Virus record (IMG/VR): IMGVR_UViG_3300045988_090087
Source of the DNA: a virus
Strand: one strand, 5' to 3'
Length of the DNA stretch: 64,000 nucleotides
The notes beneath the pieces were generated by a model. It saw only the letters and a list, made by a program, of their open reading frames with translations. It was not told where the DNA came from and did not search any database. Below are positions 1-64,000 of the stretch, piece by piece; position 1 is the stretch's first letter; each line of letters starts with the position of its first letter. A program made the translations under genes and the position numbers.

Positions 1-2
1 GT

Positions 3-356
3 TCTAGAAAAAGTCCTATATTAAATGCTATAGTAAATGGTAAATCAGTAAATAACAGACTAAATTTCTTAGCTAATAATAATAGAACTGATGAATATGG
101 TTCTATAGCTGGAGGAAGAATAATTATATAGGCGGGTAAAGAAGTTCGTTTAGTTTCCGGAAGTATAGATAATATTAGAGATGAGATAGAAGCTATGAAA
201 TCTAGAAACAATGTTAAAACAGTAGATTTATATACTTTAGATAATGGTACTTATCATTCAGGATTAAGAACTTTTGATAAAATATTTACTAGAGATGACT
301 TACTAAAATATGATGCTCAAAATACGGGCGGAGGAAATTTTTTATATATAAAATAA
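3..356 (+). CDS. 3' end of a gene starting upstream of the window (unknown function); open only if TAG at 129-131 is read through
   Basis: Frame 3 is open from the window edge to TAA 354-356 apart from one TAG. A hairpin terminator follows directly. Confidence 0.45.
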
Positions 357-409: not shown

Positions 410-440
410 AAATTAATAAATATCCATCCCCAAATATTTA

Positions 441-599
441 TTAATAAGTAACAGATAATTCATTTAACTTATCACAAAAATCAAGAGTTAATTGATTATC
501 TTGTAAATCATTATCTCCTATAGTATCAATAATCTACTGTACTTCATTAAGTACTTTGTTCATTTTAGACTTTAAGTCTTTTAATTCTTTGTTAGTCAT
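441..599 (-). CDS. Small hypothetical protein (52 codons) with in-frame TAG at 534-536
   Basis: ATG 597-599 overlaps the upstream stop (TAATG). MTNKELKDLKSKMNKVLNEVQ-[TAG]-IIDTIGDNDLQDNQLTLDFCDKLNELSVTY-TAA. Confidence 0.4.
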
Positions 600-880
600 T
601 AATCAATTTTTATATAACCATTAACATCTAGATTATCATATATAGAAGTTATTGTATATCCTGTAATTGGATTTCTATAATGATATTTTTTAATTTCTAT
701 ATCTTCTTCTGAATTAGAATTTATATTTTGGTTGTCTTTAATCCATTGGTCTAAATCAGCTTCTGTTCCATTCTCTAATTGAAATAGAATCTTAGGTTCT
801 GATTTTAATCGTTTTAATTTTTTAGTAAGATTAGTTGTTTTTAAAATCTTACCATTTAATTCATAAATTGCTGCTATCAT
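599..880 (-). CDS. Hypothetical protein
   Basis: ORF track 599..892. The first ATG is at 878-880 (MIAAIYELNG...), 1 nt after the tRNA 3' end. Confidence 0.5.
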   Translation of the reverse strand: MIAAIYELNGKILKTTNLTKKLKRLKSEPKILFQLENGTEADLDQWIKDNQNINSNSEEDIEIKKYHYRNPITGYTITSIYDNLDVNGYIKID

Positions 881-918
881 GTTCTCCCACAAGGATTCGA
901 ACCCTGGCTAAAAGATTT

Positions 919-1921
919 CATTTTAACACCTCTGTAGAGGATTAGACTATCACATCCAGTCCTAGGACCAGTCTCTTTATTTAGTCGTTCACGCTGTATT
1001 TAAACTTGCGCCCTGTCACTTTATACTAAGTATATACGCTTCCAAGTCGATTAAAAGAGATTCTACTTAAAGATTATGGATTATCCTTTAAGCATCCAAT
1101 ATTTCAAAGTAATAGTTTTTCCAAAGAATGCCAACATTTCTATTTAGAGTTGCTCTACAAGTTTTCATTAATTTAGTAGTTACTAAATTATTATCCATTA
1201 ACCATTGACAACATTCTGCTATACACCCAAATCTTCTTATTTCATTATGAGAAGAGTCATATTGTATAACATACTTTTGATTTTGTTTAGTTAATCCAGC
1301 TTCTGATAAAACTTGTTTTACTGCTTTAGGATTTAAATTATATCTATCAGCAACTTTCTTTTGATTTTTTAATTCTATATAAGAACTAATAATTAAATTC
1401 TTTAATTCATCAGAAAGTTCGTATTTAGATTCTACTTTTTGTTTATTTTTAGCACCATAAGTAGTGGTTTGACTATGACAATTAGGACACAAAAATCTTA
1501 GATTTTCTATTCTATTATCATTATTTACACCATTAATATGGTCTAATTCTAGAGATAAAGTCTTACCCTGCCATTCTGTAATTCCACATATTGCACATGT
1601 ATAAGGAAGTAATTTGTTTCTTAATATATAGCTTCTTAATATATTACGTGCGTGTTTTGAATTTTCACATAATAATTTAGAAGCATCTATTTCTTTCTTT
1701 TCATTACAGTCGACTATAGCTGATTTGCCTCTAAAATCTTTACCTGATAAATTTAAATCTTGCATTCTTTGTTTAACTTGTGAATATCCCCAACTGTTTC
1801 CAACAGTAGTATATCCAAGTTTAAATAAAACTTCTGAGATATTCAGACTTGACTTAACTAAGTCTGAAAACTCTTTATCCGTAAGTTTATAAATTTTATT
1901 TTCCATACTTTAAAATTTTTA
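919..1921 (-). mobile_element. Group I-type intron in the tRNA anticodon loop, carrying an HNH ORF
   Basis: The 5' exon ends in U and the intron ends in G (919). The 3' core has an R-like AAAGAGACTGG, an S-like GTGATAGTCTAA (AGACT/AGTCT can pair as P7) and a terminal CCTC-TACA-GAGG hairpin. Confidence 0.55.
1088..1906 (-). CDS. HNH homing endonuclease (intron-encoded), no in-frame TAG
   Basis: CAICG...LELDHINGVNNDNRIENLRFLCPNCH (HNH/zinc motif). It lies entirely inside the tRNA intron. Confidence 0.85.
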   Translation of the reverse strand: MENKIYKLTDKEFSDLVKSSLNISEVLFKLGYTTVGNSWGYSQVKQRMQDLNLSGKDFRGKSAIVDCNEKKEIDASKLLCENSKHARNILRSYILRNKLLPYTCAICGITEWQGKTLSLELDHINGVNNDNRIENLRFLCPNCHSQTTTYGAKNKQKVESKYELSDELKNLIISSYIELKNQKKVADRYNLNPKAVKQVLSEAGLTKQNQKYVIQYDSSHNEIRRFGCIAECCQWLMDNNLVTTKLMKTCRATLNRNVGILWKNYYFEILDA

Positions 1922-1965
1922 AGAGTCTTCTGTGCTAACCATTACACCATAGGAGAGTAATATCT

Positions 1966-2187
1966 TTACATATGACTACTAACACTAAAAGAATTTTCAG
2001 TAGAAGTAGTTTTATTATTATTAGTGTCTATTGAGATAAACCCATTATGTGGTATATCTTTTAAACCTTTTAAAACCATATTATCTATAGTTAATTTAGG
2101 TCCATTAATAATATTTACTAGTTCTATTAATTGAGATACTGTAAGATTAGGAACTATCTTATTAATTTTTTGTAATGTTTCTATCAT
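1966..2187 (-). CDS. Hypothetical protein
   Basis: ORF track; it ends 10 nt upstream of the tRNA 5' end and tiles with its minus-strand neighbours. Confidence 0.5.
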   Translation of the reverse strand: MIETLQKINKIVPNLTVSQLIELVNIINGPKLTIDNMVLKGLKDIPHNGFISIDTNNNKTTSTENSFSVSSHM

Positions 2188-2464
2188 TTAAAAAATCCAC
2201 TATGTGTTTAAATTCTTGTTTATATTTTTTATATTTAGAATTATCTAAATTAGAAGAAAAATCTTCTAAAGATATATCTGAGATAATTCCAAATATTAGA
2301 CAAGCATTGTTAAATGTTTCATCATCTAATTTACTACAATATTCTTCAAATTCATCTACCTTTTTAGTCATGGTTATATGAATTACATTATCAATAACCT
2401 ATAAATTTATATTATACTAATCAGGAAGGTCTTTAATACTTTGTATTAGTTGTTCTTTATTCAT
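2162..2464 (-). CDS. Hypothetical protein; possibly extended N-terminally through two in-frame TAGs (2399-2401, 2417-2419). The standard-code version is 2162..2371
   Basis: The frame stays open from ATG 2462-2464 (MNKEQLIQSIKDLPD-TAG-YNINL-TAG-VIDNVIHIT-MTKKVDEF...) with no TAA or TGA. Confidence 0.4.
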
Positions 2465-2581
2465 TTAATATTTCTTTTTGATTACACGAGTAATATAGTC
2501 GAGGAAGAGAATATTAAAAGTTAATTTTTGTAAAAGTTAATATTTTAAGAAATTAAAATTAAAATTTTAAAAATTCAATTA

Positions 2582-3061
2582 CTAAATAAACTTATACTCA
2601 ATTATATTTTTTATAATTTGAGTTCTATCAGATATTTTACCTTTAAAAAAGTATTCAGGATTTAAATAGTAAACAGCTTTATATCTAGAATCTTTTAATA
2701 ACATCTTTTTCTTTACTAAAGAAGTAATAGTATTACGTATAGTTCCAGCAGCTAAGTTAGTTTTAATTTTAATAGTATCTCTAAGTTCTTCATCTAAAGA
2801 AATCTTATTTCCTGGAAGTGCCCTATCTTTATCTTCATAATAATTAGAAGTATACCATAAAACAGCTAATACATTAGACTCTGCTTTAGATAACTTATAA
2901 AATTCTTCATTATCTCTTAAATATATCTGGCAGAATTGTTCAGCACTAACAGTTTTAATAGTTTTAACTTCAGCTGATAATATCTCTCCACCCACTCCAA
3001 CTTTAATTGACTCTATTTGTTTCATATTAACATTTGTTTTAATTAAAATTAATTTATTCAT
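2582..3061 (-). CDS. Putative winged-helix DNA-binding protein
   Basis: LAAGTIRNTITSLVKKKMLLKDSRYKAVYYLNP resembles a recognition helix plus wing. The stop is TAG (2582-2584), followed at once by in-frame TAA. Confidence 0.5.
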   Translation of the reverse strand: MNKLILIKTNVNMKQIESIKVGVGGEILSAEVKTIKTVSAEQFCQIYLRDNEEFYKLSKAESNVLAVLWYTSNYYEDKDRALPGNKISLDEELRDTIKIKTNLAAGTIRNTITSLVKKKMLLKDSRYKAVYYLNPEYFFKGKISDRTQIIKNIIEYKFI

Positions 3062-3466
3062 TTTTTATATGATTCAAAATAAATTCACAAAAATTATGTC
3101 ACAAAAATTATGAATAGAACAAATGTAGGAATGAATGAAGTGAATCCTCCAATGAATAAAATAAATCTGTGAGTGCATAAAAAATTTGTAAGTGTCTGAT
3201 AATCAAGGAGTTATGAAAATACTCTTCTTATCTTATACGTGAAAAATATTTTACATTTTTAAAATTTTAAAATTTTTAAGTTACTTTATATATTCCCCCC
3301 CCCGTTATTTTTTAGGAACTGTTACATTAATGGCTTTTATTGAAGTAGTTAATTTTTAAATTAAATTTAGTGATTTACACGGGTGTTCACTGCCCCTTAG
3401 AGCCCCCCACATATTTGGAGTAAAAACCAAATAAAAATTATTAACAAATTTAAAAAGTTAAAGATT

Positions 3467-8632: not shown

Positions 8633-8685
8633 TTACTTTAGTAATCTATTATGTCCATAAGCACAATAGATTACAAAGACAAATA

Positions 8686-8718
8686 TTAGAGTTCAGTCTG
8701 TGGTAGATAGAACTCTAA
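8686..8718 (+). repeat. Conserved-loop hairpin, copy B
   Basis: 9-bp stem TTAGAGTTC/GAACTCTAA; loop AGTCTGTGGTAGATA. Confidence 0.6.
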
Positions 8719-8807
8719 GTGTAAACCTACATCCTGCATATCCAAAGTAGCAGACTCTTAATGAGAAAGGTGATGGCACATTATTAATAATTAAATAGTT
8801 TAAAAAA

Positions 8808-8978
8808 ATGGAGACAAAAGACATTATTAAGATTACAGCATTAGTCTTTTCTAAAAAGAAAACTATTGCACAAGTAAGTAAGGAGTACAAAGCTATTCAT
8901 GGTAAAGAACTTCCAATCAAGAGTGACTTAGAAACATTACAAGCACAATTATCTTTGGGAGGAATTTATCAATGGTGA
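8808..8978 (+). CDS. Small hypothetical protein (56 aa)
   Basis: Hand-translated: METKDIIKITALVFSKKKTIAQVSKEYKAIHGKELPIK...GGIYQW. Its stop overlaps the next ATG. Confidence 0.4.
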   Translation: METKDIIKITALVFSKKKTIAQVSKEYKAIHGKELPIKSDLETLQAQLSLGGIYQW

Positions 8979-11063: not shown

Positions 11064-11148
11064 GGAGGAATAGCACGTAATTGGAAGCGTCACAGTCTTC
11101 TAAACTGTTAGCATTATGCTCTTGAGGGTTCGAGTCCCTCTTCCTTCA
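11064..11148 (+). tRNA. tRNA, anticodon TCT (Arg by anticodon) on a long-variable-arm body
   Basis: Acceptor GGAGGAA/TTCCTTC; anticodon arm ACAGT-CTTCTAA-ACTGT; variable arm AGCA-TTA-TGCT; T arm GAGGG-TTCGAGT-CCCTC; discriminator A. Confidence 0.6.
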
Positions 11149-11155
11149 CGCATAT

Positions 11156-11236
11156 ACGGAGTTAGCTTAATGGCTAAAGCACCTCATTTTCACAATTCAT
11201 AGAGAGGTTATATTGGTTCGAATCCTTTACTCCGTA
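11156..11236 (+). tRNA. tRNA-like gene with about 7 extra nt next to the anticodon loop (TTTTCAC, Glu-type loop)
   Basis: Acceptor ACGGAGT/ACTCCGT; D arm GCTT-AATGGCTA-AAGC. The central region CCTCA-TTTTCAC-AATTCAT-AGAGG is too long, and the T stem has U-U mismatches. Confidence 0.45.
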
Positions 11237-11259
11237 CTAACATTAAAAGATTGAGTAAT

Positions 11260-11610
11260 ATGAAAAAGATTATTTTATTAATGAGTTTTATTGTATTAAC
11301 TACAATAGCTCATGCGTTTAATTATGGTTCTATCACTGTTTATCAAGATGGTGAATGGAGTGATCCATTTTACATTAAAACTTCAGTAGTATATAATGAA
11401 GCTAGAAAAACTATTACTTTTAGCAATAGTAAGTTTGGTAAAATGGTATTAAAAATATACTCTTCTGAAATGAAGGATGGAGTAGAAATCCATAACTGTG
11501 GAGAGGTTAATACAGGAAGACGCTTTGTTGTCTTTATTACAGTAAGAAATAAAATTCCTTACGTAACTCTTAGTACTTCCGCAGATACCATGTTTTCATT
11601 TGGCTTTTAA
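11260..11610 (+). CDS. Secreted small protein (signal peptide)
   Basis: MKKIILLMSFIVLTTIAHA-FNYG...; embedded in the tRNA cluster. Confidence 0.6.
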   Translation: MKKIILLMSFIVLTTIAHAFNYGSITVYQDGEWSDPFYIKTSVVYNEARKTITFSNSKFGKMVLKIYSSEMKDGVEIHNCGEVNTGRRFVVFITVRNKIPYVTLSTSADTMFSFGF

Positions 11611-11665
11611 GTTTCCATAATAATGTGTTAACGTTTTACTAGTTTTCCGATATAAACTAGTACTT

Positions 11666-11748
11666 ACGGTAGTAGCTCAGTGGCTAGAGCATCTCTTTTA
11701 TAATAGGTCATTTCGAGAAGGTCATTGGTTCGAATCCTTTCTACCGTA
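11666..11748 (+). tRNA. tRNA-like gene with about 10 extra nt next to the anticodon loop (TTTATAA, anticodon TAT / Ile-AUA type)
   Basis: Acceptor ACGGTAG/CTACCGT; D arm GCTC-AGTGGCTA-GAGC; then TCTCT-TTTATAA-TAGGTCATTT-CGAGA-AGGTC. Paralog of 11156..11236. A 7-bp leader hairpin sits at 11637-11661. Confidence 0.45.
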
Positions 11749-11856
11749 CAAATTTAATTTGATATATTGTTAGTGTGTTTGGATAAATCCTGACTAATAA
11801 ATTTATTAGTATAGGTAGGTGTTACCACTATTCTCCTTTATAGAAATGTGGGCTAT

Positions 11857-11926
11857 GGAGATATAGCTCAGAAGGTTAGAGCGCGGTGAAAATCCCGAGA
11901 TTGTGGTTCGATTCCACGTATCTCTA
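11857..11926 (+). tRNA. tRNA-like gene, 70 nt, shortened anticodon stem; loop contains GAA (Phe-type)
   Basis: Acceptor GGAGATA/TATCTCT; D arm GCTC-AGAAGGTTA-GAGC; T arm TGTGG-TTCGATT-CCACG. Only CGG/CCG pairs around TGAAAAT. Confidence 0.4.
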
Positions 11927-11971
11927 CTATATACAAGAATAAAATTCTATGCAAAATAAGATTATAAATTA

Positions 11972-12045
11972 GCTCTCTAAGCTTTAAGGTGAAGCACGAA
12001 ACTTTTAATTTCGGGAAGACAGGTCAGTACTGTCAGGGAGCACCA
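11972..12045 (+). tRNA. tRNA-Lys (TTT), CCA encoded, unusual T loop
   Basis: Acceptor GCTCTCT/AGGGAGC; CGAAA-CTTTTAA-TTTCG; T arm GACAG-GTCAGTA-CTGTC; 3' ACCA. Confidence 0.75.
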
Positions 12046-12086
12046 TTAATTTTTAATTTATTAAAAGTATTCATTTGTAATACACG

Positions 12087-12116
12087 AGATTCTCAGTCTG
12101 TGAAGATAGAGAATCT
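12087..12116 (+). repeat. Conserved-loop hairpin, copy C (4 nt upstream of a tRNA)
   Basis: Stem AGATTCTC/GAGAATCT; loop AGTCTGTGAAGATA. Confidence 0.6.
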
Positions 12117-12120
12117 ACTT

Positions 12121-12192
12121 GGCACTATCGTCTAGCTGGTTAGGACGTAACTTTTCAAAGTTAAAAGGCGATTTCGAGCATCGCTAGTGCTA
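12121..12192 (+). tRNA. tRNA-Glu-like (TTC) with irregular anticodon arm
   Basis: Glu-type D arm TCGTCTAGCTGGTTAGGAC. The anticodon arm is TAAC-TTTTCAAA-GTTA (4 bp with an 8-nt loop, or 5 bp with a 6-nt loop). T arm GCGAT-TTCGAGC-ATCGC. Confidence 0.6.
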
Positions 12193-12271
12193 CTCTTCCG
12201 TATTTAAAAAACTAATACGATTAATGTTTAAAATATAAAGTCAGCGGACTTTATAACGTTAAAGAGTTGTT

Positions 12272-12299
12272 AGCTTCTGGTCTGTGAAGATAGGGAGCT
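12272..12299 (+). repeat. Conserved-loop hairpin, copy D (5 nt upstream of a tRNA)
   Basis: Stem AGCTTC/GGAGCT (one G-U pair); loop TGGTCTGTGAAGATAG. Confidence 0.55.
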
Positions 12300-12304
12300 T
12301 TATT

Positions 12305-12392
12305 GGAGAAATGACTGAGTGGTCGAAAGTGGCACCCTGCTAAGGTGTTAGTCATATTACATGGCTCGAAGGTTCGAATCCTTCTTTCTCCG
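12305..12392 (+). tRNA. tRNA-Ser (GCT)
   Basis: Acceptor GGAGAAA/TTTCTCC; loop CTGCTAA; long variable arm; T arm GAAGG-TTCGAAT-CCTTC; discriminator G. Confidence 0.8.
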
Positions 12393-12446
12393 CTTTATTC
12401 ATACTTGTAATTATAAAATATGGTTCGTGAGAATAATATTTTATTC

Positions 12447-12519
12447 GGAGGATTAGTGTAACGGTTTCACACGAGGGACTTTGACTCCCTAATAGGCAGT
12501 TCAACTCTGTCATCCTCTA
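12447..12519 (+). tRNA. tRNA-Gln (TTG)
   Basis: D arm GTGT-AACGGTTTC-ACAC; AGGGA-CTTTGAC-TCCCT; T arm GGCAG-TTCAACT-CTGTC. The leader hairpin GAATAA-TATT-TTATTC abuts the 5' end. Confidence 0.75.
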
Positions 12520-12710
12520 CTAATTAATAAATAGGTACTAAACAACTCTCAGTGACTCTATTAAATAGCGTAATTACCTTAAAATTAATCATTTGGGTTA
12601 AAAAGAGAAAGAACGTTAGATAACTGAGGACAATGGAATAGTTTAAATATAACCAGTGAAAATCGCCTATTATTTAAATAGATTATTAACACATTAATTA
12701 TAGATAAATT

Positions 12711-13100
12711 ATGACAAGACAAGATTATTTTATTAGTAAAACCAATTTAATAGCACAAATAGAAAGTGCTAAGAAATTTGGTTGTAAACATGTACTCAAG
12801 TGTGCAAAGTTAAACTTAGCTGAACTTGAAAAGAAGTACAAAAAAGAACATCTTTCTAATCCCCTGTTCAGTTACATGGTAACTGATGAAGAAATGGACG
12901 AACTTATTAGAAATGATGAAAAACCTACATTTAAAATCAAAGTAACTTTTAAAAGTGGAGAAGCTTATGATTTGATGTTTTATCATGAACTTAAAAGTGG
13001 AGTTAAACATTCTGATGTTGTGAAATGGGCGATGATAGGATTAACTAAAACTATTCATCATCCTGAAAATATTGTAGATGCTCGTTTTATTATGGGTTAA
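12711..13100 (+). CDS. Hypothetical protein
   Basis: ORF track; AACACATTAAT motif upstream. Confidence 0.6.
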   Translation: MTRQDYFISKTNLIAQIESAKKFGCKHVLKCAKLNLAELEKKYKKEHLSNPLFSYMVTDEEMDELIRNDEKPTFKIKVTFKSGEAYDLMFYHELKSGVKHSDVVKWAMIGLTKTIHHPENIVDARFIMG

Positions 13101-13105
13101 AAGAT

Positions 13106-13465
13106 ATGGAAGTAAAAACAATACAGATTGACTCTGATACATTTTTAGTGTTTAAGGGACGAGAGTACAGACAGATAAACATAAATGACATTGTATGTAT
13201 AAAAACATCTGGTAAATATAGTACTATAATAGATGTTCATGGTAATAGTATTATTGTGTGTTGTTCATTAAAAAATATTTCACGTGTTTTATGTATTAAT
13301 TTTATTCTTGCAACACAAGGATTTTTAATAAATCATAAATACATATCTGAGATAACTAGAAAGAATGATGAAAACAATACATATATCTTAAAATTAAATG
13401 ATAATATTCATACAACTGTGGATATTTCATTATATGTAGCTACAAATATATTAAAACAACTGTAA
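13106..13465 (+). CDS. Stand-alone LytTR-type DNA-binding domain protein
   Basis: ININDIVCIKTSGKYSTIIDVHGNSIIVCCSLKNISRVL...FLINHKYISEI follows the LytTR pattern. Confidence 0.55.
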   Translation: MEVKTIQIDSDTFLVFKGREYRQININDIVCIKTSGKYSTIIDVHGNSIIVCCSLKNISRVLCINFILATQGFLINHKYISEITRKNDENNTYILKLNDNIHTTVDISLYVATNILKQL

Positions 13466-13466
13466 T

Positions 13467-13586
13467 ATGAAGAAAATAGTATTAAAAGTAACAGTAGAAG
13501 TTCCGGATGATTATATATTGGATGATCCATCTTGGTTATTAGAAAACATTGGTATTGGATATGATTATGATGTTGAACGTATTTAA
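13467..13586 (+). CDS. Small hypothetical protein (39 aa)
   Basis: Hand-translated; the ATG is 2 nt after the upstream stop, and a terminator hairpin lies at 13607-13637. Confidence 0.35.
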   Translation: MKKIVLKVTVEVPDDYILDDPSWLLENIGIGYDYDVERI

Positions 13587-13642
13587 TTTATTTGAAAAAT
13601 AAGAATACCAACCCCTATAAATTACATGTTGGTTTTTCCCAA

Positions 13643-13674
13643 ATATTGTTGGCAACTAGCAGATAATTAGTTGC
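13643..13674 (+). promoter_or_regulatory. 32-nt leader element (copy 2), 5 nt upstream of tRNA-Leu
   Basis: Identical to 11028-11059. Confidence 0.4.
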
Positions 13675-13679
13675 TTTAT

Positions 13680-14290
13680 CGCTTAGTGGTGAAACTGGGA
13701 TACACGAGGGACTTTTGGAACACCAGTAATGGTGAATTTGAGTGCTCTATTAGAAATAATAGAAGTAGAATCTCCCTAATTAAACAAGTTAATTACTAAT
13801 TGTAAAAAGGTTAGCATCTGTGTAAGAAGCAGAGTAATGATTATAGAAGCAGTATTCAGAAATCTAATTAACTTGCGACAGAAGCCTCACTTATGGTGAC
13901 ATAGGTTTTGGTGGTGACGAGCTAAATTGTGATAGAACGCTAATCTATCTTAAATGTAAATTGGAGTGTTACAGCATAAATGTGTAGAGACTATAGAGGA
14001 GATACCTAAGTTAATTAAAAGGAATGGTTTAGACTTCATCCTTAGTAATAAGGTTATAATAGTAATGCATTATGTAAAAAAGGAGACGCTCATTGAGAGA
14101 GGTAAAACCTAATTCCTTACTTCGAAGTTAATTGATAAGGTAATAAAATAGTCCAGACTACAATAACTTATAGAGGCAGAAATATTGGTGTAATTTAGCA
14201 TTGCTGTAAGTTAGCTTGTATAAAAGCAAGTGTGGTAGGAAAATCCCTTGACCAGGAATGGTCTTACGGGTTCGAATCCCGTCTAAGCGA
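13680..14290 (+). tRNA. tRNA-Leu (TAA) interrupted by a 525-nt intron
   Basis: Exon 1 (13680-13714) ends ...AGGGA-CTT. Exon 2 (14240-14290) is AAAA-TCCCT, a long variable arm, then ACGGG-TTCGAAT-CCCGT-CTAAGCG-A. Spliced length 86 nt with loop CT-TAA-AA. Confidence 0.7.
13715..14239 (+). mobile_element. ORF-less group I-type intron between anticodon positions 34 and 35 of tRNA-Leu(UAA)
   Basis: U precedes the 5' junction and the intron ends in G (14239). An R-like CAGACTACA lies at 14154-14162. The track shows no ORF of 60 aa or more. Confidence 0.55.
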
Positions 14291-14367
14291 CATATTAATG
14301 TATTAATTTGTGAAAATTGATGAATTTCTTGTAATTACCTATATTTAGTCGAGAGTGACTAAAAGCT

Positions 14368-14399
14368 AACTCACATTGCTTGTGAAAGTAGTATGAGTT
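14368..14399 (+). repeat. Conserved-loop hairpin, copy E (variant loop)
   Basis: Loop TTGCTTGTGAAAGTAG, identical to copy F; the stem sequence differs. Confidence 0.5.
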
Positions 14400-14434
14400 T
14401 TAAATAAAATTATATAACATACTAGTATAAATTG

Positions 14435-14506
14435 AAATGTGTAGCTCAATAGCTAGAGCGTCTATCGTAGAGTAGAAGGTTGGCAGTTCAAATCTGTCCG
14501 CATTTC
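14435..14506 (+). tRNA. tRNA-like gene, anticodon undetermined (irregular anticodon arm)
   Basis: Acceptor AAATGTG/CGCATTT; D arm GCTC-AATAGCTA-GAGC; T arm GGCAG-TTCAAAT-CTGTC. The central part folds only as TCTA-TCGTAGAG-TAGA. Confidence 0.5.
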
Positions 14507-14548
14507 CTTTTTCTATCATTATTTTAATTTTTAATTTATTAAAAATAA

Positions 14549-14578
14549 AAGAGCTTTGCTTGTGAAAGTAGAGCTCTT
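14549..14578 (+). repeat. Conserved-loop hairpin, copy F
   Basis: Stem AAGAGCT/AGCTCTT; loop TTGCTTGTGAAAGTAG. Confidence 0.55.
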
Positions 14579-14750
14579 ATCAAAATTATGCGAAAACTTT
14601 AATAAGTTAAGGCTTCTTAAAAAGCCTAAAGTACTTAGTGTCTTAGTGGCAAGTTGCACGTCCGGCTAGCAAGTAGGAAGGAGAGGAAGTAGCGACCCTC
14701 AGACACTTTTATAAATTGCTCAAGTATCCGCTCTGTCTTATACACTAATC

Positions 14751-14822
14751 CTTGAGGTCGGCTAATGGTTAGGCTCGATGTCTTATACACATCCAATCTG
14801 GGTTCAAGTCCCAGCCTCAAGA
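14751..14822 (+). tRNA. tRNA-Ile (TAT)
   Basis: Acceptor CTTGAGG/CCTCAAG; GATGT-CTTATAC-ACATC; T arm CTGGG-TTCAAGT-CCCAG. Confidence 0.7.
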
Positions 14823-14911
14823 CTACTTTTTATCATATTATTATTCTGAAGAGTCTAATTAGTTAATCTAGTTAGGCTCTTTTATTGTTTAATTAAATAA
14901 CACATTAACAT

Positions 14912-23769: not shown

Positions 23770-24110
23770 CTAAAGAAGAAGTAGAAAGGAATGCAGAAAG
23801 ATGGCTAGAAATTATTAGATCTTTTATAGATAAAAGGGACAAATTAAATGTAAGACGCGATGAGCTACTTCAAGAAATGAAACAATTTCAAGAAGACTAT
23901 ATTAAAGCCTTGCCTGTTAAAATTGGAGATAAGATTATGGATGAGGATGGACGTGTAGGTCAGCTTTCCAGAATAGTTCCATATCGTTCACCATCGGAAA
24001 GGTTTATGTGTGCGACATTGAGTTTGACCCTTTTCTTCCATATGGAGAAAAAAGATGGTACTTATGACAATCGTGAAGTTTATGTTCATGGTTTTCCAAT
24101 CAAATTATAA
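23766..24110 (+). CDS. Hypothetical protein
   Basis: ORF track. Confidence 0.6.
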   Translation: MTKEEVERNAERWLEIIRSFIDKRDKLNVRRDELLQEMKQFQEDYIKALPVKIGDKIMDEDGRVGQLSRIVPYRSPSERFMCATLSLTLFFHMEKKDGTYDNREVYVHGFPIKL

Positions 24111-24115
24111 TTAAT

Positions 24116-24496
24116 ATGAACAGAAATCAAGCTAAAAAATTTTATCCTATTCTGCAAGCTTTTGCAGAAGGAGAGGCAATTGAGTGTAGAACCAAACCAA
24201 GTGCATTAAGCAAAAGTTGGCAAGATATGAATGATTGGACGGAAATGAAAGAGATTGAGTTTTGGAATAATACAGAATATCGCATCAAGCCAGAACCAAA
24301 GTATCGTCCATTCAAGAATGCAGAAGAGTGTTGGGCAGAAATGCAAAAGCATCAACCATTTGGATGGACTAAACTAATAGGAGAAATCGAGTATAGTCTT
24401 ATAACAGATGTTGATGATACTATTAATTATTCAGATGCTATTAAAGAATATACATTTGCAGATGGAACTCCATTTGGTGTAAAAGAAGAGGAATAG
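24116..24496 (+). CDS. Hypothetical protein
   Basis: ORF track; TAG stop. Confidence 0.6.
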   Translation: MNRNQAKKFYPILQAFAEGEAIECRTKPSALSKSWQDMNDWTEMKEIEFWNNTEYRIKPEPKYRPFKNAEECWAEMQKHQPFGWTKLIGEIEYSLITDVDDTINYSDAIKEYTFADGTPFGVKEEE

Positions 24497-24498
24497 CT

Positions 24499-24765
24499 AT
24501 GGCAACATATAGAATAGTAGATATGTATCGTAAAAGCAAGGCTGTTAAAGGCATACATTACGATTCTTGGGATGAACCTATTCTTGCTTATCGGGTAGAT
24601 AAAAGACATTCATTACTCTTTGGACTTATTCATTATTGGGAATATGGTGCAAATAATCTTTTCCCAGTGTGCTCGTTTTATTCGGTTAATGAAGCTGAGG
24701 AAGCTATCTTAAAAGCAGAGAATTTTCCAATAAAGAGTAAAAAAGTAACAATTTTATATAAATAA
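24499..24765 (+). CDS. Hypothetical protein
   Basis: ORF track. Confidence 0.55.
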   Translation: MATYRIVDMYRKSKAVKGIHYDSWDEPILAYRVDKRHSLLFGLIHYWEYGANNLFPVCSFYSVNEAEEAILKAENFPIKSKKVTILYK

Positions 24766-28403: not shown

Positions 28404-29714
28404 AAAATTTAAGCAAATTCAGTAAGCTTAAATTTTTAAAAATTTTATATTTATTTGGATTTAATAAAATTTCATATATATTATAGTAATATTAATTTTA
28501 ACTATATGAATATGAAATTTGTAATTAATGAAGAATTAGGAGAAAAAATTAAGACTTTGTACTTAATAGATGGATTAAGTTGTACTAAGATTGGTAAAGA
28601 GGTTGGAATTTCTACTTCTACTATAAGTTCATTTCTAAAAAGAAATGGAATTGAAGTAGTTAATAAACAAAACAAATTATTATTTGATCTAGATAAAGAT
28701 ATTATTCCTAAATATAAGCAAGGGATAAGTTTATCTAAATTAGCTAAAGAGTATCATACTTCTATCCAAACTTTGTCTAGAAAATTAAAAGCTAAAGGGA
28801 TTGAAATAATCAATCATCAAAATGAAACTAAATTTAATGAGCATATCTTCGATGTTATAGATACTGAAGAAAAAGCTTATTGGTTAGGGTTTATATTTGC
28901 TGATGGTTATATTTCATCAAGAGATAACGGTTTTGAACTATCTTTAAAAGGCTCTGATATTGAACACTTACATAAATTTAATAAGTTTATGGAGCATAAT
29001 AAAGATAATGTCAAATTAGGGGAAGTTAAAAATAAAGATAAAACTTTTTTAAGGTGTCGCTGGGGAATAGTCAATAAGCACTTATGGAATACTCTAAATA
29101 ATTTAGGATGTACTCCAAGAAAAAGTTTAACTCTTCAATTTCCTAATATTTCTGAAGAATTAGAAATTCCTTTTATTAGAGGATACTTTGACGGTGATGG
29201 TTGTTTAAGTTACTATTAGAAGACAAAAATTTTACCAAAAGCTTCATTTTTAGGAACTAGACAATTTTTAGTAAAGATACAAGCAATATTAAATAATTTT
29301 AATATAAAAAGTTCTTTAGTAAAAGATACACGAATGGAAAATACTCTAGTATTAAATGTATCTTCAACAAATTCTTCAGATTTTTTAGACTTAGTATATA
29401 ATAATAGTTCCATTTATTTAGACAGAAAATATAAAAGATATAAAATTTTTAAAACTTGCCGTTCTAAACAGGAATGTTTAGAATTATTAGCGGGTGAAAA
29501 CGGGGAAGGCTGTGATGCTAATCCCGTGGTAAATGAAGATAGTAACGAATCTTCATCACTGTAACGCGTAGAAGTTGAAACTCTTATAAGAGAATATAAT
29601 ACTTCCAAGAGCGCCCGCTCTCCCAATCATTTGAATGGAGAAAAAGGTACGCTGAGCTATAACAAATAAGAAGTTATAGAAATATAGATAAAAAGCTATA
29701 TGATAACAATACTG
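28404..29714 (+). mobile_element. Group I-type intron (1311 nt) with a LAGLIDADG ORF, inserted in the Walker A codons
   Basis: The exon ends GGT (U) and the intron ends CTG (G). Joining restores GGT-AAA-ACA-GTT (G-K-T-V). The 3' ~120 nt is homologous to the helicase intron. Confidence 0.65.
28506..29564 (+). CDS. LAGLIDADG homing endonuclease with two N-terminal HTH modules; one in-frame TAG (29217-29219)
   Basis: YWLGFIFADGYI and IRGYFDGDGCL motifs. ORFs 28455..29219 and 29334..29564 share a frame that is open across the TAG, and the C-terminal part continues the LAGLIDADG fold pattern. Confidence 0.7.
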
Positions 29715-36559: not shown

Positions 36560-36633
36560 GGGGCGTCGGCTCAAGTGGTCAGCACCTGCTTTGCACGCAG
36601 ACATTCTTAGGAGTTCGAATCTCCTACGCTCCA
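36560..36633 (+). tRNA. tRNA-Ala (TGC)
   Basis: GGGGCGT/ACGCTCC with G3-U70; loop TTTGCAC; T arm AGGAG-TTCGAAT-CTCCT. Confidence 0.75.
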
Positions 36634-36648
36634 CTAAAAAATATAAGT

Positions 36649-37392
36649 ATGAACATTAAAGAACTTACAAATAAAGAATTAATAAAATTATATAAGGAGC
36701 ATAAATGTTCTTTATAGGCTATAGAAAAAGATTTAGGATTAACTAAAAATTAGGCAGGAAGATTATTCAGAGCAAGAAATATTGATTATAAAAGTTTGAA
36801 AAATCAATATTTAATAGATTTAGAAATGGATTATTATAACCATCCAAATGTTTGTAAATATTGTGGAAATCCTTTACCTTACAAATATAAGGGAAGTTTT
36901 TGTAATCAATCTTGTGCGGCTTCCTATAATAACATTTAGAGAAGGACTTCAGAACATAAAAATAAAGGACCCCAAAAAAATTATCATTGTTTAAACTGTG
37001 GTAAAGAACTCAAATATGTTTCTGGAAATTATATGAAATATTGTTCTGCAAAATGTCAGACTGAATATCAACATAAAGAGTATATTAAACGATGGAAAAA
37101 TGGTGAAGAGACAGGTGTTACTGGTAAAACTGATATATCTACCCATATACGTAAATATTTAAAAGAAAAATTTAATAATTCTTGCCAAAAATGTGGGTGG
37201 AATTAGATAAATTATTTCACAGGTTTAGTACCATTACAAATCCATCATATTGATGGAGATTGTTTAAATAATAAAGAAAAAAATCTTTAGTTACTATGTC
37301 CTAATTGTCACGCTTTAACCGAGAATTATGGCAGTAGAAACAAAAATTCAAAGAGAACTTCTAGAAGAATACATTATGAAAATAACTATTGA
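36649..37392 (+). CDS. Free-standing HNH homing endonuclease with five in-frame TAG codons
   Basis: A 247-codon frame whose only interruptions are TAGs at 36715, 36751, 36937, 37204 and 37288. Paralog of 1088..1906: CQKCGW..LQIHHIDGDCLNNKEKNL-TAG-LLCPNCHA. Confidence 0.65.
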
Positions 37393-37716: not shown

Positions 37717-37794
37717 GCAAGATTAGTGTAGCTGAAGGCGCATATCTGGCTTCCAACCAGAAGGCTTGCGTGGGTTTGATTCCCACATCTTGCA
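37717..37794 (+). tRNA. tRNA-Gly (TCC)
   Basis: Acceptor GCAAGAT/ATCTTGC; TCTGG-CTTCCAA-CCAGA; T arm GTGGG-TTTGATT-CCCAC. Confidence 0.7.
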
Positions 37795-38049
37795 CTATGA
37801 TAAAGCTCTAGAATACTAGTTACAGGAGCAACGTAACTTATAGGGTGCCTCTCAACGATGCATACTCGCCTATTAGGTGTCGTAGAACCTACGAACTGGA
37901 ATGATTCGATGGTTTTTTGCATTCCTATAGAATCCTAAATAATAAAAATAGAGACCATGTCTCTAACAGGGGTGATTTACCTGGGATTCTTAATTTTTTA
38001 AACTCTCCTCCTAGATATTTTATAAGTTAAACTTTAAATTTGATTTATT

Positions 38050-40660: not shown

Positions 40661-41160
40661 ACTTAGTTTGGTTAAAGTTAATAAAACGAATTTTAACTCA
40701 TAAGTATTATGTTGCTAAATATTGCTTTCAAATAGGATTATATTGGCAAGGTATTACTCATGATTTATCTAAATTTAGTTTTATAGAATTTTCAAGAGCT
40801 ATTAAGTATTGGGATGATAAAATGAGCTCTTTAGCGAATGAGTGCAGAATATTAGGATATAGTCAAACATTCCTTCACCATAGAGGAAGAAATCCTCATC
40901 ATTATGAATATTGGATACATTCCTTAGATAATGGAGGAATTCCTGCTAAAATGCCTAAAAAATATGTTCTAGAACTTATATGTGATTATTTAGCAGCAGC
41001 TAAAACATATGGAGCTGACCCTAGAAGAGAATATACATGGTGGCTTAAACAACAACCTCATATGAAAATCCACAAAAAAACTAAGAGTTATATAACTGAA
41101 GTGTTTTATAAATATAGTATAGGTTTAACATTAAAAGAATCAATTAATGGAAATTATTAA
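40657..41160 (+). CDS. Hypothetical His-rich protein (HHRGRNPHHYEYW motif)
   Basis: ORF track; immediately upstream of the NAD cluster. Confidence 0.6.
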   Translation: MNLVWLKLIKRILTHKYYVAKYCFQIGLYWQGITHDLSKFSFIEFSRAIKYWDDKMSSLANECRILGYSQTFLHHRGRNPHHYEYWIHSLDNGGIPAKMPKKYVLELICDYLAAAKTYGADPRREYTWWLKQQPHMKIHKKTKSYITEVFYKYSIGLTLKESINGNY

Positions 41161-42700
41161 TGCAACTGATGGCTATAAGCTTGGTCATCATCGTATGTAC
41201 CCAGAGGGTACACAAATGGTCTATAGTAACTGGACTCCTAGAAGTAATCGTTACTTCCCAGAAGCTACAGAAGGTTCTGTAGTATTTGGTATTCAGTACT
41301 TTGTAAAGAAGTATTTGATAGAGGAATTTAACAAATGGTTTGCTCTTCCTAAGGAAGAAGCTATTAAGCAATTTGCTTATCGTGTAGGTAACTTTGTAGA
41401 CCTTAATCAGGTTGGGACAAAGCATATTGAAGAACTTTATGATTTAGGATATCTTCCTATTGAAATTAAAGCTCTTCCTGAAGGTTCTATCTGTCCTATA
41501 AGAGTACCTATGATGACTATTAAGAACACTCTTCCTGATTTCTTCTGGTTGACTAATTACTTGGAAACTTTAATTAGTTGTACTCTATGGCTTCCTTGTA
41601 CTTCTGCAACAAGTGCTCGTCTCTATAAAAAGAGACTTATGGAACATGCTAGAAAGACTGGATTCCCAGAAGATGTAAATCTAGGTTTCTCTTGTCACGA
41701 TTTCTCAATGAGAGGTATGGCAGGACTTGATGCTGCTATTATTTCAGGTATGGCTCATATGACTTCATTCTGTGGTAGTGAAACAATTCCTGCTATTGAA
41801 GCAGTAGAGCATTATTACGATGCAGATGTTACTGAAGAACTTGTAGCTGCAACTGTCCCGGCTTCGGAACATTCAGTAATGTGCGCAGGAGGTGAGGATG
41901 GTGAGATTGAAACATACCGCCGTCTTATTAATGACTTATATCCAACAGGTATTATCTCAATAGTATCTGATACTTGGGATTTTTGGCAGGTAGTTGAGAA
42001 ATTCTTGCCTAAGCTTAAGGCAGATATTATGAAACGTGTTGGTCGAGTAGTAATTCGTCCTGATAGTGGTGACCCAGTGGATATTATTTGTGGTCTTCGT
42101 ACAAATCCTCACTATCATACTGCTATGAAAGAGGGTAAGTACTACTGTGATTTCAATCCATTTATGGATGATGATGAGAGTCATTATGTAGAAGTATCTG
42201 AAGGTCAGTATTATGGAGCATATTATATGCTAGGTAAAATCTTTGGATGGAATACTACTGTAAATGATTATCGTTATCCAAGTACTAAAGTAGGTTTGCT
42301 CTATGGAGATTCTATCACTCTGGAGCGTCAGCGTGATATCTATGCTAGATTGGAAAACGCTCATATGGCAGCTTGTAATCTTGTTCTAGGTATTGGATCT
42401 TATACTTATCAGTTTAAGAGTAGAGATTCTTTGGGTTTCGCAGTTAAAGCGACCGCATGCACCATTAATGGTAAACTTATAGAAATCTATAAGCACCCAA
42501 AGACTGATGATGGAACAAAGAACTCTCTTAAAGGTCTTATAAGAGTTGAAAAAGAGGATGGTAAGTATGTTGCTTATGACCAGCAGACTAAGGATGCAGA
42601 ACTACAAGGTTGTCTTAAAACAGTCTTTGTAGATGGAGAATTAGTAAGAGAATATTCTCTTTCTGAAATTCGTGAACGTGTAAATTCAACATTAGTATGA
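41147..42700 (+). CDS. Nicotinamide phosphoribosyltransferase-family enzyme (NAMPT/NadV, or Namat of NARP1)
   Basis: N-terminal NATDGYKLGHHRMYP...VVFGIQYFVKKYL is the NAMPT signature; length is about 517 aa. Confidence 0.8.
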   Translation: MEIINATDGYKLGHHRMYPEGTQMVYSNWTPRSNRYFPEATEGSVVFGIQYFVKKYLIEEFNKWFALPKEEAIKQFAYRVGNFVDLNQVGTKHIEELYDLGYLPIEIKALPEGSICPIRVPMMTIKNTLPDFFWLTNYLETLISCTLWLPCTSATSARLYKKRLMEHARKTGFPEDVNLGFSCHDFSMRGMAGLDAAIISGMAHMTSFCGSETIPAIEAVEHYYDADVTEELVAATVPASEHSVMCAGGEDGEIETYRRLINDLYPTGIISIVSDTWDFWQVVEKFLPKLKADIMKRVGRVVIRPDSGDPVDIICGLRTNPHYHTAMKEGKYYCDFNPFMDDDESHYVEVSEGQYYGAYYMLGKIFGWNTTVNDYRYPSTKVGLLYGDSITLERQRDIYARLENAHMAACNLVLGIGSYTYQFKSRDSLGFAVKATACTINGKLIEIYKHPKTDDGTKNSLKGLIRVEKEDGKYVAYDQQTKDAELQGCLKTVFVDGELVREYSLSEIRERVNSTLV

Positions 42701-62660: not shown

Positions 62661-62681
62661 ATAATATTTTGAAATAACTAT

Positions 62682-62728
62682 ATAAGCACTATATTATTAG
62701 TTCAGTACTAGTATTATAGTGCTTATTT
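62682..62728 (+). terminator. Rho-independent terminator
   Basis: A 12-bp stem (ATAAGCACTATA / TATAGTGCTTAT) followed by TT. Confidence 0.6.
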
Positions 62729-62766
62729 CGTAGATGATTTAAAATGTTAATTTATAAATGTTATTT

Positions 62767-64000
62767 ATGGTAATAAAGAGAGACGGAATTAAAGAAGAGT
62801 TTAACAGAAACAAAATTAGAGATGCTGTACTAAAGGCTTTTGGAATTACCCAAAATTCTAGTAAGACAATGGACGAAGATATTTACAGAGCAGTTACTGA
62901 GATAACTAATTCTGTAGTAGAAACTGAAGATCAATCCATTGAGGATATTCAAGACCAAATTGAAGAACTCTTAATGGATTTAGGATATTACAACGTAGCT
63001 AAAAAATATATTCTATATCGTAAAGAACGTGAAGATATTAGAAATCATGCTACTAGGGATATTAAATTTATTCATAATTTTGTAAAGTCTGATAATACTG
63101 CTAATGCTACTATTGATGATAATAGTAATGTTGGAACTAAAGGTATTGGAGTATTAAACGCTGAAATACATAAAGTCGATAATAAACTTACTAATACAGA
63201 ATGGTGGGAAAGTTTTGTAAAGAAGAGAGACCCTAACTTTAATATAAAAGTTATGAGGAATGACTTTAAAACTATTTTGTATCCTCATGACTCATCTTCT
63301 CAAGTAGGAGAACCATATTGTATGGCAGCTTCTATGTATCCTTTCTTGTTGTTTGGATTAGAGAAATTAGGAGGTAAATCAGCTGTTCCAAAGAACCTTG
63401 ATTCATTCTGTGGTATTTATGTAAATTTAAACTTTGCATTAGCCTCTGAAATTAAAGGAGCAGTAGCTACTCCTGAGTTTCTGATGTATATGGATTATTT
63501 CTGTAGAAAAGAATGGGGAAATAATTATTATCTCAAACCAAGTGTAAAAATAACTACAGATTATTGTATAAAACAGAAAACTATTGGCAGTCAAATTGAT
63601 CAATATTTCCAACAGGTAACTTATTCCATTAATCAAATAGCAGGAGCTAGAGGAATGCAGTCCCCATTTACAAATTTTTCATTCTTCGATAAATATTTCT
63701 TTGAAGGTATGTTTGGAGAATTTGTATTTCCAGATGGAACAAAGCCAGAATGGAATTCTACTAATTGGTTACAAAGACGTTATTTACATTGGTTAAATCA
63801 AGAAAGATTAAAATGTATCTTAACATTTCCTGTGTGTAGTTATGCTTGCTTAACAGATAAGGAAGGTAATTTTAAAGATTTAGATACTTTCCATTTTATA
63901 TGCAATGAATATGCTCAAGGAAATTCTTTCTTTACTTATTTGTCTCGTAGTGTAGATAGTTTAAGTTCATGTTGCTTTTCTAAAGATACTAAGTTTTTAT
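62767..64000 (+). CDS. nrdD: Anaerobic ribonucleoside-triphosphate reductase (NrdD), 5' part, runs off the window
   Basis: Hand-translated open frame from ATG 62767 to the window end. ATP-cone start MVIKRDGIKEEFNRNKIRDAV; ...GARGMQSPFTNFSFFD...SLSSCC. It is absent from the ORF track, presumably because it has no stop in the window. Confidence 0.75.
   Translation, partial: MVIKRDGIKEEFNRNKIRDAVLKAFGITQNSSKTMDEDIYRAVTEITNSVVETEDQSIEDIQDQIEELLMDLGYYNVAKKYILYRKEREDIRNHATRDIKFIHNFVKSDNTANATIDDNSNVGTKGIGVLNAEIHKVDNKLTNTEWWESFVKKRDPNFNIKVMRNDFKTILYPHDSSSQVGEPYCMAASMYPFLLFGLEKLGGKSAVPKNLDSFCGIYVNLNFALASEIKGAVATPEFLMYMDYFCRKEWGNNYYLKPSVKITTDYCIKQKTIGSQIDQYFQQVTYSINQIAGARGMQSPFTNFSFFDKYFFEGMFGEFVFPDGTKPEWNSTNWLQRRYLHWLNQERLKCILTFPVCSYACLTDKEGNFKDLDTFHFICNEYAQGNSFFTYLSRSVDSLSSCCFSKDTKFL

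Follow-up and report, generated by a model that had tools for sequence, protein, structure and literature searches.

A free-standing HNH endonuclease gene with in-frame TAG codons, probably read as glutamine, in a tRNA array of a gut phage

The virus record IMGVR_UViG_3300045988_090087 was analysed as a stretch of 64,000 nucleotides (nt), hereafter the window, which at 36649-37392 on its plus strand carries a frame for an HNH-type protein with five TAG codons inside it. From sequence comparison we consider this most probably an intact, selected, free-standing HNH homing-endonuclease gene written in the alternative code of its phage, in which TAG stands for glutamine. It lies in a transfer RNA (tRNA) array of a large human-gut phage, in the (early/middle) block that is otherwise written in the standard code; the phage has a crAss-like layout in two blocks and related contigs of 173-185 kb.

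Integrity of the HNH gene

Re-reading 36649-37392 reproduced exactly what an initial annotation of the window had described, a 247-codon frame with five TAGs at the positions below, zero TAA, zero TGA and no frameshift. The DNA comparisons used a set of orthologues consisting of the window gene plus L005 (from a baboon sample), L013, L014, L015 and L016, taken from different phages, and residues at single sites were tallied over 120 aligned homologues of the HNH protein.

36649..37392, plus strand: predicted free-standing HNH homing-endonuclease gene, ATG start, 247 codons plus TGA stop (37390-37392); translation, Pfam, PHROG
36715..36717, plus strand: TAG codon 23, context SL-TAG-AIE; TAG also in the L005 and L016 orthologues; Q second commonest residue among homologues
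36751..36753, plus strand: TAG codon 35, context KN-TAG-AG; CAA (Gln) in the L005 orthologue
36937..36939, plus strand: TAG codon 97, context NNI-TAG-RR; AAA in L005, Q in P0003
37204..37206, plus strand: TAG codon 186, context CGWN-TAG-IN; CAA in L005, TAG in L014; homologue residues K 52, Q 32, E 24
37288..37290, plus strand: TAG codon 214, context NL-TAG-LLCPNCH, within the HNH motif; Q in 118 of 120 homologues; other orthologues CAG, CAA, CAA, TAG, CAA
37183..37314, plus strand: HNH nuclease core, residues 179-222, CxxC...HH...N...N...CxxCH; PF01844 match, alignment, model

Translated with TAG as glutamine, the product begins with a helical N-terminal region, continues with a treble-clef module and a second zinc ribbon, and ends in an HNH nuclease. 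Pfam matches HNH (PF01844) at residues 179-222 with 23.6 bits (cut-off 21.4) and the DUF2116 treble clef with 29.3 bits (cut-off 26.8); several PHROG 'HNH endonuclease' families match as well (best E = 4e-27), and the databases hold 1398 homologues. The Cys pairs and the HH..N..H/CPNCH motifs that the initial annotation had picked out are indeed kept, as CQKC (179-182), CPNC (217-220) and HH...N...H, with C179, C182, H199, H200, N208, C217, C220 and H221 invariant in a 61-sequence alignment and N212 kept in at least 90% of it. In an AlphaFold2 model built with 61 homologues (mean predicted local distance difference test score, pLDDT, 89.7) a beta-beta-alpha element is formed by strands 197-200 and 213-216 and helix 218-222, and the top Foldseek matches are HNH domains, first that of EcoKMcrA (probability 0.99), then those of Cap5 and Cas9, with no E-value below 0.001. 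A sequence search of the PDB returned no close solved relative, the best hits being McrA HNH domains (E = 0.16). By family score and conserved catalytic and zinc residues the product is a predicted HNH endonuclease.

A homology had also been claimed with the HNH gene at 1088-1906. It extends over a 56-residue nuclease core (41% identity, E = 2e-10), and nothing beyond this core is shared. That second gene, on the minus strand, has 272 codons and no TAG and belongs to a small minus-strand island (~420-3000) within plus-strand territory; the public collection has proteins identical to its product in 78 blocks, from contigs of up to 275 kb.

A 247-codon frame without TAA or TGA has a chance of P ~6e-8 in sequence of 30% G+C. 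Homing endonuclease genes often degenerate once fixed, and this tendency, the five stops under genetic code 11 and a suppressor tRNA that was searched for and not found would all suit a decaying pseudogene whose TAGs are nonsense mutations. Decay should however produce TAA at least as often as TAG, as the initial annotation had argued: of the single-base changes that create a stop from the gene's own sense codons, 51% give TAA, 30% TGA and 19% TAG, and for five nonsense hits the all-TAG outcome has P ~2.5e-4, to which is added the complete lack of frameshifts. Nor are the five TAGs assembly errors, since the allele with its five TAGs recurs in the independently assembled Logan contig L004 (5 base differences) and in the IMG/VR contig L017 (96% identical). 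Of the mixed stop types or frameshifts in related copies that had been named beforehand as signs of a pseudogene, the five further orthologues show no mixed stop types, being likewise TAG-only. Between the window gene and its L005 orthologue (80% identical) the ratio of nonsynonymous to synonymous divergence (dN/dS) is 0.11 at dS ~1, and the catalytic and zinc residues are intact. Moreover, TAG is swapped with CAA or CAG at invariant Gln columns in six lineages, and essential genes of the lineage use TAG as sense, as set out below. The TAG-only pattern, the exchange of TAG with Gln codons and the low dN/dS thus leave the pseudogene a very improbable account, and on these comparisons the HNH gene is intact and under purifying selection.

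Meaning of TAG in the gene and in the lineage

Every one of the six orthologues has in-frame TAG as its sole in-frame stop type (26 TAG, 0 TAA and 0 TGA in all), at sites that vary from gene to gene. Their codons in the SCQxCGW column are CAA, TAG, CAA, TAG, CAA and TAG, and those in the NLQLLCPNCH column are TAG, CAG, CAA, CAA, TAG and CAA. The latter is the site at which the initial annotation had set ENL-TAG-LLCPNCH beside the ENLRFLCPNCH of the paralog; the comparison was correct, and the residue found there in nearly all homologues is Q. The check it had proposed, alignment of the TAG sites to HNH homologues to find the inserted amino acid, likewise returned glutamine: the residue most often facing TAG is Q, in 19 of 85 cases against a background of 4.2% (five-fold, p = 2e-9). 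The public protein collection already contains the window HNH protein (P0001) translated with Q at all five sites. With Gln at the TAG site, the predicted TAG-spanning peptides of the product include NLQLLCPNCHALTENYGSR and CGWNQINYFTGLVPLQIHHIDGDCLNNK, and the context of codon 214 is NL-X-LLCPNCHALTENYGSR.

Another amino acid (such as Lys, Glu, Tyr or pyrrolysine) could in principle be inserted at a sense TAG, given that after Q the residue seen most often opposite TAG is K (16 of 85) and that, among distant homologues, Q falls short of a majority at three of the five TAG sites of the window. We hold this to be highly unlikely: the two most conserved TAG-bearing columns alternate always with CAA or CAG, Q is enriched as described, and the only TAG reassignment published for such phages is to Gln, with proteomic support. 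Late genes of crAss-like phages read TAG as Gln (Yutin et al. 2021, PMC7886860), late-gene recoding of the same kind is found in phAss-1 (PMC10607447), and Peters et al. (2022, PMC9523058) give metaproteomic validation of TAG as Gln in crAss-like phages. That TAG encodes glutamine in the HNH gene and in its lineage is strongly supported by these alignments.

The lineage is best seen in MT835492.1, an unannotated 121.6-kb scaffold from human faeces that is ~96% identical to window positions 24115-64000 and has a minus-strand late block at 65 to 121 kb. There, code 11 gives open reading frames (ORFs) over only 0-0.3 of a 5-kb bin in most cases, with a maximum of 0.54 towards the end of the contig; a TAG-sense code raises the coverage to 0.95-1.0, or 0.79 for the final 1.6 kb, and taking TGA as sense brings almost no gain. 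The comparison of gene calls under code 11 and a TAG-sense code, which had been suggested as a check, thus finds the late block open only with TAG as sense. Its large ORFs contain 551 TAG vs 359 CAA/CAG, and among its genes are those for a capsid protein with 4 TAGs and for a 3401-codon protein with 128 TAGs.

To the left of the window the view is provided by L010-L012 (contigs of 79 to 185 kb), which are 97-99% identical to the window's first 12 kb and carry, directly left of window position 1, genes with 3-9 TAGs each, one product having an SLT lysozyme-type domain. At 11551-17009 of L012, in the orientation of the window's plus strand, heavily TAG-recoded genes lie clustered on the strand of the early block; among them are a tandem pair of 378-codon paralogs, each having 9 TAGs vs 1-3 CAA/CAG, and the SLT lysozyme-domain protein. 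Recoding is thus not limited to the minus-strand late block. Judged from these sequences the lineage uses TAG as sense, the late block being observed in relatives and not in the window. A more distant relative, MT835470 (62% capsid identity), the sole further one in the phage collection, has the standard code and no tRNAs, which fits published code switches across short phylogenetic distances (PMC7886860). Further on in L012 (17856-19787, also left of the window) a 643-codon protein without TAG seems to be interrupted by an insert resembling an intein, which has the LAGLIDADG motifs LGAWLGDGS ... LMDTDGY.

Most of the window past position 3400 is covered by 94 non-overlapping plus-strand ORFs for which code 11 is sufficient, so that the earlier statement that most neighbouring early genes need no recoding stands for these; the exceptions are a LAGLIDADG gene and a gene cut by the window edge, both with TAG. 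Internal sense TAG on the window's plus strand is confined to these two, with one TAG in the LAGLIDADG gene, and the HNH gene with its five.

1..356, plus strand: 3' part of a gene truncated at the window's left edge, in-frame TAG at 129; full-length L012 copy has 378 codons and 9 TAGs
28506..29564, plus strand: predicted LAGLIDADG homing endonuclease gene, 352 codons, one TAG at 29217-29219; translation, Pfam LAGLIDADG_3

The product of the LAGLIDADG gene has two helix-turn-helix repeats and two LAGLIDADG motifs, and the LAGLIDADG_3 match (residues 222-280) runs across the TAG at codon 238, where code-11 calling shows a TAG-terminated ORF. Its MT835492 orthologue has the same TAG, and MT835492 also has a TAG-free paralog at another site (23.0-24.0 kb). 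The gene is missing from L004 at the matching position; in the L004 segment that replaces it ARAGORN calls a transfer-messenger RNA (2314-2643, tag ARVINMTPAYQAAA), which may be a false positive or a structured RNA.

The concentration of TAG in HNH genes recurs at all six orthologue loci, where they contain 26 TAG in 1467 codons vs 24 in 18871 for their neighbours, as called by a gene caller treating TAG as sense (odds ratio 14, p = 4e-17), and at each of these loci the HNH gene is the most TAG-rich gene.

Three other window stretches were set aside as TAG-containing genes: 24077-24712 is an ordinary gene that ends in TAG and is followed by junk including TAG-TAG, 41957-42640 on the minus strand is the antisense of a NAMPT gene, and at 8661-8978 relatives do not call one gene. 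In the last 1.3 kb of the window (62661-64000) no plus-strand ORF of at least 60 codons was found under code 11.

Mobility and the HNH family of tRNA arrays

The HNH gene sits in a variable cassette bounded by tRNA genes.

36560..36633, plus strand: tRNA-Ala(UGC) with G3:U70 and a variable loop of 7 nt, which is atypical; lies 15 nt ahead of the HNH start codon; Rfam tRNA 37.5 bits
37376..37714, plus strand: ORF of 112 codons (ORF112), first 17 nt overlapping the HNH 3' end
37717..37795, plus strand: tRNA-Gly(UCC), closing the variable cassette; ARAGORN, Rfam 30.9 bits
36562..37769, plus strand: variable 1.2-kb stretch with the tRNA-Ala variant, HNH, ORF112 and most of tRNA-Gly; BLAST of the window vs MT835492

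ARAGORN misses this tRNA-Ala in the window and calls its copy in L015; ORF112 has no PHROG match. In place of the whole variable stretch MT835492 has one different tRNA-Ala. In L015, whose flanks are 94-95% identical, junction alignments place a precise absence of the HNH ORF (~36651-37373), so that ORF112 begins 25 nt after the tRNA-Ala, and another family member (50% identical) follows ORF112 in the place of tRNA-Gly. As these junctions indicate, the HNH gene is a mobile, ORF-sized presence/absence insertion between tRNA-Ala(UGC) and ORF112. Bearing on co-conversion, HNH-bearing alleles differ from MT835492 in the version of tRNA-Ala and in having ORF112 and tRNA-Gly besides, and the tRNA-Ala genes beside family members have no common pattern. 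Another indel among close relatives, at window 40752-42605 (plus strand), takes in the greater part of a NAMPT-like gene of 517 codons (41147-42700); L004 and L015 have this stretch and MT835492 lacks it.

Such mobility, with absence from close relatives and no tRNA(CUA) found in the window, would also be expected of a cassette newly imported from some other TAG-recoded phage and silent because the resident phage cannot read TAG. There is very little probability in this account, given that the resident lineage is itself TAG-recoded, that sense TAG is not limited to the HNH gene, occurring too in the LAGLIDADG gene (28506-29564) and in the gene cut at the window edge (1-356), and that the same allele with the same five TAGs is found in independent samples.

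Relatives of the HNH protein are encoded in 241 IMG/VR stretches, the best 80 of which were surveyed. A tRNA gene lies within 1.5 kb of 78 of the 80 loci, where the window's own arrays give a chance expectation of at most 20% (p ~1e-51); the family is almost confined to tRNA arrays of phages. The nearest upstream tRNA varies, Ala being the most frequent (10 of 57), and the adjoining tRNA-Ala sequences are too diverse for a tie of the family to one tRNA-Ala variant to be made out. In-frame stops are TAG-only at 15 loci, TGA-only at 5, lacking at 54 and mixed or including TAA at 6; at the mixed loci the copies may have decayed, or the alignment may run past the end of the gene. The family's in-frame TGAs fall on the conserved Trp of the RWK and CGW motifs (W184 is invariant, and W149 invariant or nearly so). 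With TGA at conserved Trp in the TGA-only members, the family follows the reassigned stop of the resident phage, be it TAG as Gln or TGA as Trp.

Timing, known systems and the search for a decoder

Under standard host decoding, ribosomes would stop at codon 23 of the HNH gene, after 22 residues, and full-length nuclease would be made only once the infected cell reads TAG as sense, presumably late in infection. That stage would offer many genome copies as repair templates as well as targets in co-infecting relatives that lack the endonuclease, an abundance that would suit a homing endonuclease. The nuclease would then cut the endonuclease-free allele at a putative target probably in or near the tRNA region, and the HNH gene would be copied into the cut allele by recombinational repair.

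Late-only translation is predicted equally if the gene is functional and TAG is Gln, and the TAGs are a neutral by-product rather than a timing device: there would be no selection for translation before the code switch, and only truly early genes would be kept TAG-free by selection. We regard this overlapping account as a real, if less probable, possibility. It would be in keeping with TAG sites that differ among orthologues (window and L005 share one of five), with a TAG share among Gln codons of 42% in the HNH gene, below the 60% of late genes, with the 54 of 80 surveyed family members that have no in-frame stop, and with the TAG-free paralog at 1088-1906. It does less to explain why the HNH gene carries the most TAGs at each of six loci in different phages, or why all three TAG-bearing plus-strand genes of the window are outside the ordinary early set, two of them being homing endonucleases; related preferential recoding has been found statistically for an intron endonuclease (10.1101/2021.08.26.457843). 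A bolder combination, namely that the HNH family of tRNA arrays has been selected for the resident's reassigned stop, that the code acts as a translational lock, and that TAG is read here without a CUA tRNA, seems to us doubtful as a whole. If true, the lock would limit the action of a selfish nuclease to the late stage of infection and to phages sharing the same code.

Several points weigh against the view of the HNH gene as an intact, selected gene in the phage's own code. The fast turnover of TAG sites among orthologues fits neutral synonymous drift equally well as a selected lock, and the recoded late block is known from relatives only, outside the window. The 94 plus-strand ORFs end in TAA (63), TGA (21) and TAG (10), so TAG is still a stop at some stage, with a TAA or TGA following within 13 codons after 8 of the 10 TAG stops. 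Finally, searches of the window, with its 15 tRNA-like genes, and of the 121 kb of MT835492 yielded no tRNA-like gene bearing a CUA anticodon, whether by ARAGORN (introns allowed or not), by Rfam under both its gathering and E-value thresholds, or by a custom scan that looked for xU-CUA-xx loops flanked by stems of 5 bp.

The nearest published case of recoding is that of Borges et al. (bioRxiv 10.1101/2021.08.26.457843), who described, in TGA-recoded 'Agate' phages, an early gene whose group I intron encodes a recoded endonuclease, and inferred that recoding delays production of this endonuclease to late infection. Here too a homing endonuclease gene with in-frame reassigned stops lies amid early standard-code genes; the Agate gene, however, is intron-encoded, in another phage clade and with TGA as Trp, whereas the window gene stands free in a tRNA array, is of the HNH type and has TAG as Gln. 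Beyond the Agate case, orthologues of the window gene exchange TAG with CAA and CAG, and the family uses either code according to the resident phage. Recoded stops inside intron endonuclease ORFs have also been published (PMC7886860). With code-15 gut phages the lineage shares a two-block genome in which sense TAG falls mainly in late genes, the assignment of Gln from alignments and a suppressor tRNA that cannot always be detected, but their recoded genes are structural, and the one at hand is a selfish element in the early block.

Phage T4 (SegB, the mob HNH genes and I-TevI) may be the closest functional parallel, with free-standing endonuclease genes in intergenic spacers and delayed expression. 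SegB is encoded with tRNA genes on either side and acts on the tRNA region; promoters specific to T4 endonucleases belong to the middle or late class and in no case to the early one, and RNA structure blocks translation of early transcripts (review PMC2988022). The T4 delay thus comes from late promoters and hairpins hiding the ribosome-binding site, not from the genetic code; SegB is of the GIY-YIG family and the window gene of the HNH family; and cleavage and homing have been demonstrated for T4, whereas for the window gene they are predicted.

The Zeta crAss-like phages Lera and ct1yV3 (~91% identical) differ by presence or absence of homing endonucleases (PMC12386605). Phages of this group have genomes of ~150-190 kb, a forward block with tRNA arrays and variable endonuclease genes, as here, and use TAG or TGA suppression; PMC12386605 reports no recoded stops within endonuclease genes, nor a tie to tRNA genes. 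The present lineage resembles the group in its two-block layout, giant late proteins and relatives of 173-185 kb, and matches no signature crAss-like protein. Its capsid protein has a weak match to the PHROG 'major head protein' (E = 2e-8) and by tblastn matches only two unclassified gut records; neither this search nor a widespread 677-residue early protein assigned the phage to Crassvirales or another group.

Late-gene recoding of TAG to Gln, a recoded endonuclease in an early gene and the argument from timing are thus already known. The additions are modest: an HNH family of free-standing genes associated with tRNA arrays, the use that it makes of one or the other reassigned codon, and its consistent rank as the most recoded among early-block neighbours. 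These would extend the published idea of early-region selfish endonucleases held back by recoding to a large free-standing HNH family, which could serve as a natural reporter for the timing and the molecule of the code switch. In annotation, standard pipelines would label the HNH gene a pseudogene or fragment it; it offers an example, from sequence alone, that stop-interrupted genes of gut phages can be functional, in that its orthologues trade TAG for CAA or CAG at invariant glutamines.

The search for a TAG decoder was continued into the flanks. No CUA tRNA was found left of the window (L009-L012), and two walking steps in IMG/VR past the ends of MT835492 and L012 met no tRNA of any kind; these further flanks reached ~30 kb, with an estimated 10-25 kb of the genome lying outside the search. 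In two other phages (L056 and L058) a canonical tRNA(CUA) lies ~2 kb from family members, with no counterpart in the window. A TAG suppressor tRNA was detected in 40% of TAG-recoded genomes by Borges et al. (10.1101/2021.08.26.457843). We also considered an ochre-type decoder with a UUA anticodon that would read TAG as well, and found it unsupported: it would predict extra tandem stops after late genes, yet a backup stop within 3 codons is no commoner there (56%) than after early genes (35-51%, p = 0.1). Candidate decoders may be found in the tRNA array at 11064-14823 (plus strand), where several genes have aberrant anticodon arms.

11064-11149, plus strand: tRNA-Arg with a 10-12-nt insertion
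11156-11237 and 11666-11749, plus strand: tRNA genes with 18-20-nt anticodon loops
11857-11926, plus strand: tRNA gene with a shortened anticodon arm
12121-12193 and 14435-14507, plus strand: tRNA genes with 6-nt anticodon loops

In relatives that are 97-98% identical the counterparts of the aberrant tRNAs are canonical Glu(UUC), Phe(GAA) and Arg(UCU) genes. The homologue of the tRNA at 11666 has one extra T in relatives and is called 'Stop(UUA)' by ARAGORN, so that one of the candidates in this array (11.0-14.8 kb) has a UUA anticodon in close relatives. Elsewhere in the array, at 13680-14291 (plus strand), ARAGORN in intron mode predicts a tRNA-Phe(GAA) that is well paired and has its anticodon loop interrupted between positions 33 and 34 by an insertion of 525 nt, which has neither an ORF nor an Rfam group I intron match.

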